NCBI RefSeq assembly: GCF_003334765.1 | Contig: NZ_QOWT01000055.1 | Source: Escherichia coli | GTDB lineage: Bacteria > Pseudomonadota > Gammaproteobacteria > Enterobacterales > Enterobacteriaceae | DNA length: 13,955 nucleotides | Strand: one strand, 5' to 3' | Part shown: one piece after another, positions 11,585 to 12,549 of the stretch | Layout of the letters: every line of letters begins with the position of its first letter | Numbering within the stretch: position 1 is the first letter of the stretch | Notes under the pieces: model-generated | Databases searched by the model: none | Seen by the model: only the letters and a program-made list of their open reading frames with translations | What the model was told of the DNA's origin: nothing | Position numbers and translations under genes: made by a program

Positions 11585-11624
11585 GAACCGCCATGAACAA
11601 GGGTTTCATGATTTGTGATTTTAG

Positions 11625-11648
11625 TTTGGTACGCAATTTGGTACGCAA
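11625..11648. repeat. Perfect 12-bp tandem duplication TTTGGTACGCAA x2
   Basis: 11625-11636 and 11637-11648 are identical, about 55 bp inside the sbcB junction. Confidence 0.8.
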
Positions 11649-12549
11649 CACTATTTTCACTTCAGCGGGTAGTCATCAAACTCACCATAACGAGCATCGT
11701 TGATGATGTATGCGATCACCACAAATATCACATCTGGACTAGTTCCGTCTTCATGCGCAGGTATCTGTTCACGCCTCCCTTTCTGCAAATCCTAAAGATG
11801 AGATTTTGGGGTTTTGGGATATCTTTTTCTCCTCAGTTCTCTATCCATTCTACAAAGCAGTAATGAACCATCACTATGTGAAAGTGAGGCATCCGCTACA
11901 TTAAGCGCAGAGAAATGATGCAGTGGTGGGCGGACTGGCTTGATGAAAAGGTGGAGTGAACCACCTTAGCTATCGAATGACACAAAGCCTTGTAATCCAG
12001 TGCAAAGTCTTGTGTGCCTCAGTTTTGTCTAAGCGTTCTACTGAAACATAGTAAAATCGATAACGGCTGGAGATCATTCAATATCCGCACTATTGACTCC
12101 CCTCCAATAAACCGTGTAACGTACACCGTTTATAAGACAACCAAACAATAATAGAGCGAGTGAAATCATCAGTCTCAAATACCATTTATTGACGCAATAC
12201 TATCCAGTTCTGAACTAAATGACATAATTCGGTAATTAAATTAATGCATCGACATACCTTATAGATACGCCCCAATAATATAATGCTAATCCTCTTTGAA
12301 TAGAAAACGTTCAATACTCCTCACTAAATAGCATAGTATTTATATCTTCCCTTACAAAAAAAATTAAGGCATAATAATAAGCTTCCTTTAACGCTAGATA
12401 TTGAGGTTTGTATGTATCGCAGCATCGCAGCATTTAACACATTTTGCTTTTCATTGGTATTTATTTCATTAGCAAATGATATATATTACCAATTAAAACA
12501 CTCGTCATCTCTCAATACATATATTTCCTATGCATTTTGAGGGATTGCC

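Follow-up and report, generated by a model that had tools for sequence, protein, structure and literature searches.

What is the DNA of almost 1 kb at positions 11585-12549 of the Escherichia coli window NZ_QOWT01000055.1 (the whole stretch of 13,955 nucleotides analyzed here), which separates the start of sbcB from a gene for a membrane protein, and does it have a function of its own? A preliminary description of the window had noted a perfect 12-bp tandem repeat and no credible open reading frame (ORF) in this segment, and had proposed a phage attachment region, a small-RNA locus or an H-NS-silenced regulatory region. Based on comparison with related phages and prophages, the segment is very probably the integrase-distal junction of a defective prophage of about 6.6 kb, and holds, from left to right, candidate arm-type integrase sites, the debris of older genes and the leader of a cargo gene. 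The kind of element is already known. It belongs to the type-2851 integration module, which is found in the Shiga toxin (Stx) phage 2851, an Stx2c phage, and in phages Sf101, mEp234, HK140 and HK544.

The window is E. coli chromosome, in which dacD (10147-11319, minus strand) is followed by the dacD-sbcB intergenic region (11320-11521) and then by the features of the junction:

11522-11570, plus strand: native 5' end of sbcB, stranded; an ATG and 16 codons, MMNDGKQQSTFLFHDY, with the promoter region upstream (direct reading)
11558-11570, no strand: crossover core of the type-2851 attachment site, 13 bp, TTTCACGATTACG, exact match
11571-11656, no strand: integrase-distal attP arm, common to all type-2851 phages including HK140 and HK544
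11625-11636, plus strand: candidate arm-type integrase site, distal copy 1, TTTGGTACGCAA
11637-11648, plus strand: candidate arm-type integrase site, distal copy 2, TTTGGTACGCAA; TTTGGTACACAA in free phages

The reading frame of sbcB is interrupted after 11570, and the phage/host junction falls at 11570/11571, slightly to the left of the segment start at 11585, with native sbcB codons 1-16 on its left and the arm of mEp234, 2851 and Sf101 on its right. Over 11560-12096 the window was 91-95% identical to mEp234 (the flank of its annotated "prophage attachment site (type 2851)"), phage 2851 and Sf101, and the DNA shared there was also present in many Stx phages. HK140 and HK544 shared only the first ~170 bp and nothing past about 11727. 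What lies to the right of the shared DNA differs between phages: a gene for a side tail fibre in mEp234, oacB for an O-acetyltransferase in Sf101, an OspB-like gene and two small ORFs in phage 2851, and an intact humD in HK140. The 13-bp core TTTCACGATTACG was found at both junctions of the corresponding locus of strain BE2-5 (L001) and in the attP of mEp234, Sf101, 2851 and HK140. The core of phage 2851 and Sf101, both of which integrate into sbcB, has been published as CGTAATCGTGAAA (PMC4159516).

Strain BE2-5 served as the comparison genome and was 100% identical to the window over 11400-12700 (1.3 kb compared). In BE2-5 the remainder of sbcB lies 6.6 kb to the right, with a tyrosine integrase gene ahead of it, and the full sbcB carries the phage-supplied N-terminus MTGTDKQPTFLFHDYE in place of the native one. 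The cognate integrase (392 aa, with 98-99% identity to the integrases of 2851, HK140 and Stx phages) adjoins this rebuilt sbcB, and the phage attP brings a substitute sbcB promoter and N-terminus (MTD/GTDKQPTFLFHDYE; L001 20779-20830, L002 2466-2511). The crossover core spans the sbcB codons F-H-D-Y, immediately ahead of E17, a stretch in which exonuclease I has the earliest of its catalytic acidic residues. Recombination took place at the core (11558-11570): the phage supplies a promoter and the first 16 sbcB codons, so that the gene is rebuilt at the other junction and the native promoter and start are left stranded at 11522-11570. This stranded start now encodes a 20-aa peptide, MMNDGKQQSTFLFHDYAQYP (window 11320-11584). 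The junction in the window is the integrase-distal end, attR by the lambda convention; the Sf101 paper names the int-side junction attL (PMC4159516).

To the right of the attP arm, the segment and the gene that follows it comprise these features:

11657-11908, minus strand: humD (UmuD'-like) pseudogene; codons 46-129 and the stop are left, interrupted by one in-frame stop, and the 5' third has been lost
11903-11959, plus strand: 3' end of a second, HK633-type integrase gene; 19 codons, KRREMMQWWADWLDEKVE, and a TGA stop, abutting the truncated humD
11960-12105, no strand: old flank downstream of the HK633-type integrase gene, including part of the attP as annotated by the HK633 depositors
12106-12549, plus strand: AT-rich leader of the cargo gene, 31.5% GC; presumed to contain the promoter and to have arrived with that gene
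12550-13629, plus strand: cargo ("moron") gene for a 359-aa membrane protein with a GT-C glycosyltransferase fold, 30% GC

About 40% of the segment (11657-12105) is pseudogene and old-module debris, which the preliminary description missed: its statement that there is no long intact ORF held, in that only an 82-aa frame (11615-11863) exceeds 60 aa, but the segment is not empty of genes, as two gene fossils are present (humD remnant at 11660-11908, integrase end at 11903-11959). In a tblastn search with HumD of HK140, 84 codons at 11660-11908 on the minus strand matched residues 46-129 with 54% identity (E 6e-25). The HumD model NF051876 of NCBIfam matched the C-terminal part of the remnant (E 4e-10; 39.6 bits, below the cutoff of 120), and PHROG 10470 gave a weak match to the same minus-strand remnant, the only sequence to score in these scans. 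Positions 11657-11908 are a truncated humD pseudogene. For the second fossil, tblastn of HK633 Int against 11903-11959 gave 19 identical residues out of 22 (E 1e-10), and an alignment was also made at the DNA level. Rightward of the 11960-12105 flank the phages differ in cargo. Positions 11903-12105 are the stump of an older integration module that was displaced when the type-2851 module recombined in, and the humD and integrase debris is an inherited passenger in Sf101, mEp234 and Stx phage 2851.

Between the window and mEp234, 2851 and Sf101, the divergence of the fossils was 1-17% and rose rightward, reaching 11-17% from mEp234 and 2851 over 11960-12105, compared with 2-3% at the 4-fold degenerate sites of int. 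This divergence exceeds that of the int 4-fold sites. Nothing suggests constraint on the fossils, and 11657-12105 is not a functional unit. Selection was also considered as the cause of the conservation of ~540 bp of debris in siphoviruses, podoviruses and Stx phages, and was rejected on the ground that the debris diverges faster than the int 4-fold sites.

The remaining part of the segment differs in composition. GC content is 42-46% at 11571-12105, 31.5% at 12106-12549 and 30% in the following gene, compared with 48.5% in the whole window; the label "AT-rich" given to the entire segment therefore suits only 12106-12549. Of 5426 complete E. coli genomes, 74 carried these 444 bp, each time in the same context and nearly always identical; the phage records searched had none of this DNA. 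We read 12106-12549 as an AT-rich leader that came with the low-GC cargo gene. Silencing of the region by H-NS is plausible from its composition, as the low GC content that this would require (30-31.5% over 12106-13629, compared with 48.5% in the window) is present.

Could the whole 1 kb instead be a functional leader, through which the stranded sbcB promoter reads to the cargo gene, with the debris kept as a 5' untranslated region or as an H-NS-bound silencer? The stranded promoter and start are directed toward the prophage interior, co-oriented with the segment and the cargo gene, and no terminator-like site separates them; oacB of Sf101 and the two phage 2851 ORFs are co-oriented at the same position; and the 31.5% GC of the last 444 bp is typical of H-NS targets. 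Against this stand the divergence of the debris, up to 17% compared with 2-3% at synonymous sites of int, and the opposite-strand genes that mEp234 and HK140 carry at this position. Folding of 12106-12549 gave no significant RNA structure (z = -1.09), and no Rfam model matched anywhere in the window at its gathering score; a permissive scan of 11400-12700 returned a best E of 0.53, for a eukaryotic snoRNA model, which is at chance level. The small-RNA locus of the preliminary description found no support in these results either. Promoter-like sites were not enriched over shuffled sequence (4, compared with 5.7 expected), and no terminators were found; the one weak promoter-like site, at 12351-12378, lies in the leader, and a promoter could lie in the cargo gene's own AT-rich upstream region. 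On balance, a functional leader over the whole kilobase seems unlikely to us, though it deserves to be kept in view.

We now turn to the tandem repeat, which lies in the part of the segment that is attP arm. Tandem Repeats Finder reported TTTGGTACGCAA in 2.0 copies with a 100% match at 11625-11648, in agreement with the preliminary description, and when the segment was shuffled 3000 times, a perfect tandem duplication with a unit of at least 12 bp never arose. In the attP of free phages, read in the orientation of the window, the order is the int ATG, three copies of the motif, the core, 54 bp and the tandem pair. The three proximal copies (TTTGGTACGC, TTTGGTACAC and TCTGGTACAC) stand at +16, +39 and +50 relative to the start codon of int, 9-60 bp upstream of that codon and sharing the strand of the distal pair, with the core at +219 and the distal pair at +289 and +301. 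Across 5.5 kb of the mEp234 locus there were exactly five copies of the motif TGGTACRC, each of them in attP and all on one strand, where 0.25 occurrences were expected and none of 200 shuffles reached five. In the 29-kb BE2-5 locus, five of the seven TGGTACRC matches are the attP sites. The pair lies 54-55 bp past the core at every phage-side junction examined, and host-side junctions have none. In Sf101 the 54-bp spacer is visibly diverged, yet the 24-bp repeat is changed only at the R position.

The integrase itself carries an Arm-DNA-bind_3 domain (PF13356, residues 4-85, E 1.9e-17) followed by a Phage_integrase catalytic domain. We consider 11625-11648 best read as a pair of arm-type integrase sites, since their position, number and orientation are kept, the motif co-varies between the arms, and the integrase has a matching domain; binding is deduced from these sequence features. 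The N-terminal arm-binding domain of the integrase would then bind the pair 54 bp past the core, and the distal pair together with the three proximal copies would let the integrase bridge arms and core in an intasome for integration or excision. Absence of the repeat from related copies of the element, which the preliminary description had named as refuting, was not seen: the pair is kept at every related phage-side junction examined. The other prophage end, read in BE2-5, shows the same core with three more copies of the motif. The proposal of an attachment region with repeats for integrase or IHF, right for the first ~90 bp past the core, was supported as to integrase sites at 11558-11656, given the 91-95% identity to type-2851 attP, the motif in both arms and a layout conserved across distant integrases, and not as to IHF, for which no exact match to the consensus WATCARNNNNTTR was found in the mEp234 attP locus, a result that leaves room for degenerate sites.

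The layout of three proximal and two distal sites was also followed through relatives of the integrase. From 99% down to 49% integrase identity, three GTAC-centred motifs hold their position by the int start while the intervening sequence changes. Four relatives with a full attP were available, namely an uncultivated virus genome (UViG L036, 73% identical integrase), Salmonella phage SEN34 (61%), Proteus phage Brookers (54%, with a tRNA target) and Cronobacter phage ENT39118 (49%). In all four, the three proximal sites keep to distances of about +15, +38 and +49 relative to the start codon of int, the distal pair is exactly 12 bp apart at about +268 to +302, and the motif is TGTAC(A/T) in both arms together, with unrelated sequence between. 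Several prophage-form loci of the viral-contig scan were uninformative on the distal arm, as host sbcB or tRNA lies beyond their core. Integrase relatives of 59-94% identity were also seen in the sbcB 5' end of other prophage contigs (L021, L039 and L052), each with its own replacement sbcB start. A group at ~54-56% identity (L054, L093 and L095) targets the 3' end of a tRNA, annotated as tRNA-Arg in VT2phi_272, and has the same 3 + 2 arm layout where the full attP is readable (L093 and Proteus phage Brookers).

An alternative for the repeat is that it is the site of the excisionase, a recombination directionality factor (RDF) of the AlpA family whose gene adjoins int, two monomers of which would sit head to tail and bend the distal arm in excision. 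An AlpA/HTH_17 gene overlaps the int 3' end in all these modules, both lambda Xis (X1/X2) and P2 Cox have sites in the form of direct repeats within a single arm, and the 12-bp spacing is near one helical turn. Set against this, three further copies of the motif lie in the other arm by int, and a count of 3 + 2 is known for lambda Int, not Xis; the integrase carries a domain dedicated to arm binding, which requires sites of this kind; and no second repeated motif was seen that could provide them. We regard an excisionase site as quite improbable.

Several points nevertheless weigh against our interpretation of the locus as a whole. Excisionase (RDF) sites, too, look like a tandem direct repeat in one arm. 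The repeat is "perfect" only through a local variant, G for A at the R position of copy 2, where free phages have TTTGGTACGCAA followed by TTTGGTACACAA. The window contains one junction only, and the other arm was read in BE2-5, not in the window's own genome. The searchable literature gave no binding experiment for this integrase and no paper that names these arm sites. Finally, the function proposed for the cargo protein is drawn from similarity of fold alone, with no gtrA/gtrB partners adjoining.

The second repeat noted in the preliminary description lies in the leader, shortly before the cargo gene, within a small upstream ORF:

12412-12540, plus strand: 42-codon upstream ORF; ATG preceded at 5 nt by a GAGG Shine-Dalgarno sequence; shares the frame of the cargo gene, with a TGA between
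12416-12433, plus strand: 8-bp tandem repeat, ATCGCAGC in 2.2 copies (Tandem Repeats Finder); slippage-type duplication

The GAGG sequence means that the segment does hold an ORF with a ribosome-binding site, contrary to what had been stated, though nothing supports a gene. No PHROG or NCBIfam family matched the 42-codon ORF; it is not conserved ahead of a 60%-identical cargo homologue, and a third repeat unit shifts its frame in strain JCH8249. It is probably not a gene. The possibility that it is a lost N-terminus of the cargo protein was rejected, as the 60%-identical homologue and the Salmonella orthologue both start at the methionine corresponding to 12550 and the upstream DNA of the homologue is unrelated. 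The 8-bp repeat is marginally unusual (82 of 3000 shuffles), and the ATCGCAGC unit occurs three times in JCH8249 (L008 around 1817) and twice in the other carriers examined. It could be taken for a phase-variation switch that acts on the cargo gene through the upstream ORF or through promoter spacing, given that one of the 74 genomes has three copies instead of two and that the repeat stands 117 bp upstream of the cargo start within an ORF with a Shine-Dalgarno sequence. Contingency loci, however, usually have many units and this one has 2-3; one slippage event could account for the lone variant genome, the repeat departs only marginally from random expectation, and the upstream ORF is not conserved. 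A switch is therefore very improbable in our view; we take the third unit in JCH8249 as one slippage event and see no sign of phase variation. In another strain, WP2-W18-ESBL-10 (L009), four single-base homopolymer insertions were spread over the leader and the cargo gene, which is unannotated there; these indels look like assembly errors, not biology.

One frame remains, the only one in the segment longer than 60 aa:

11615-11863, plus strand: 82-aa ORF, antisense to the humD pseudogene; spurious frame

That this frame encodes a real small protein is hardly credible, even with an ORF of equal length in mEp234 and a 249-bp ORF annotated in Sf101, as it runs antisense to the recognizable humD remnant, matches no PHROG or NCBIfam family, lacks a Shine-Dalgarno sequence discernible by eye, and varies in length among relatives (82, 82, 100, 78 and 40 aa) with indels in phage 2851, UViG L011 and HK544. 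We regard both the 82-aa ORF and the matching "hypothetical protein" of Sf101 as spurious.

The gene that the leader precedes occupies the slot where Sf101 carries oacB. No match to its protein was found in Pfam, NCBIfam or PHROG, by tblastn against phage records, or in a profile search against sequences of the PDB. The family is small, with about 70 representatives, and a 91%-identical protein was seen in Salmonella enterica subsp. houtenae. The AlphaFold2 model was confident (predicted local distance difference test 92.7), and Foldseek matched it to RgtA/B/C/D-like, EpsG and Wzy proteins. An invariant Asp38 is positioned after the first helix, and distant homologues adjoin GT11 and GT2 genes. 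Neither gtrA nor gtrB lies beside the cargo gene, which is a single GT-C-fold gene between the arm and a tail-fibre assembly gene. Based on the structure model, the protein is most likely a polysaccharide-modifying transferase or a Wzy-like polymerase, probably acting on surface polysaccharide (O-antigen). The RefSeq annotation gives a form of 271 aa (WP_139499480.1, 12814-13629), 88 residues shorter than the 359-aa form. The longer form is backed by the family homologues and the structure model, and the shorter one would be without the first transmembrane helix and the invariant Asp38. A more far-reaching scenario is that the phage, in entering sbcB with an sbcB start of its own, captures the native sbcB promoter, which would read across the arm and the terminator-free debris to transcribe a lone, hitherto unclassified GT-C glycosyltransferase or polymerase that alters the surface of the lysogen, with the fossil module at 11903-12105 as the breakpoint of cargo swaps; we put this forward as a speculation that is probably wrong.

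How does this junction compare with known systems? With the type-2851 module it shares the core, the insertion into the sbcB 5' end and a distal arm with a tandem pair; the integrase (in BE2-5) is 98-99% identical, and 2851, Sf101 and mEp234 also have the same humD and integrase debris. It differs in being a 6.6-kb remnant, in its orphan GT-C cargo, found in no phage record, and in the G for A in repeat copy 2. In lambda, the arm sites of the heterobivalent Int are P1, P2 and P'1-P'3. As in lambda attP, a motif unrelated to the core is repeated 2 + 3 times in the arms here, with three of the copies on the int-proximal arm, and the integrase has a separate N-terminal arm-binding domain. In contrast to lambda, TGGTACRC is unrelated to the lambda motif, the distal sites are adjacent at a 12-bp spacing where those of lambda are separated, int is transcribed away from the attachment site, and no consensus IHF site was found. 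The lambda facts used in this comparison are established ones, drawn in part from PMC2951348, which describes the IntS-TorI system of KplE1 (CPS-53) and HK620, where the int promoter overlaps attL and autoregulation by IntS has been demonstrated (PMC2951348). Here, too, the int 5' end lies by the attachment site with arm-type sites over the promoter and leader, and the RDF is transcribed separately; the target, however, is the protein-coding sbcB, which the phage repairs, and not a tRNA, and the arm motif is another one. Repression of the int promoter is probably a further role of the three proximal copies, and by analogy with KplE1 IntS we predict that int is autoregulated. The cargo recalls that of serotype-converting phages (oacB of Sf101; gtrABC of SfV- and P22-type phages), being a low-GC gene for a membrane enzyme by the att arm, co-oriented as in Sf101, with the GT-C fold expected of GtrC-type transferases. 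Unlike those, it has no gtrA/gtrB and no sequence-family match, and its distant homologues stand in polysaccharide clusters, where proteins of this type are often Wzy polymerases.

As for the element beyond the window, the whole of it in BE2-5 measures only ~6.6 kb (L001 14159-20824) and contains the cargo gene, tail-fibre assembly and tail fragments, yfdR/yfdT-like genes, a helix-turn-helix (HTH)/RDF gene and int. In BE2-5, int and the RDF gene look intact, as do the two junctions and their five sites, so that the remnant may still be able to excise. On the left of the window, at 671-7700, genes of the dynamin (798 aa) and RdcB families and for patatin-like phospholipase were seen together with small island genes, upstream of tmaR, yeeA, sbmC and dacD. 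A scan for tRNA and tmRNA genes found none.

The value of these results lies mostly in annotation hygiene: an unannotated kilobase carried by 74 of 5426 complete E. coli genomes is explained, and the 82-aa "hypothetical protein" of the Sf101 type is marked as spurious. They also provide a testable map of five candidate arm-type sites for the integrase family that brings Shiga-toxin and serotype-converting phages into sbcB; the literature that could be searched yielded no map of this kind. Of greater interest is the orphan GT-C gene next to the segment: if its reading as an O-antigen modifier or polymerase proves true, it would represent a new lysogenic-conversion function.

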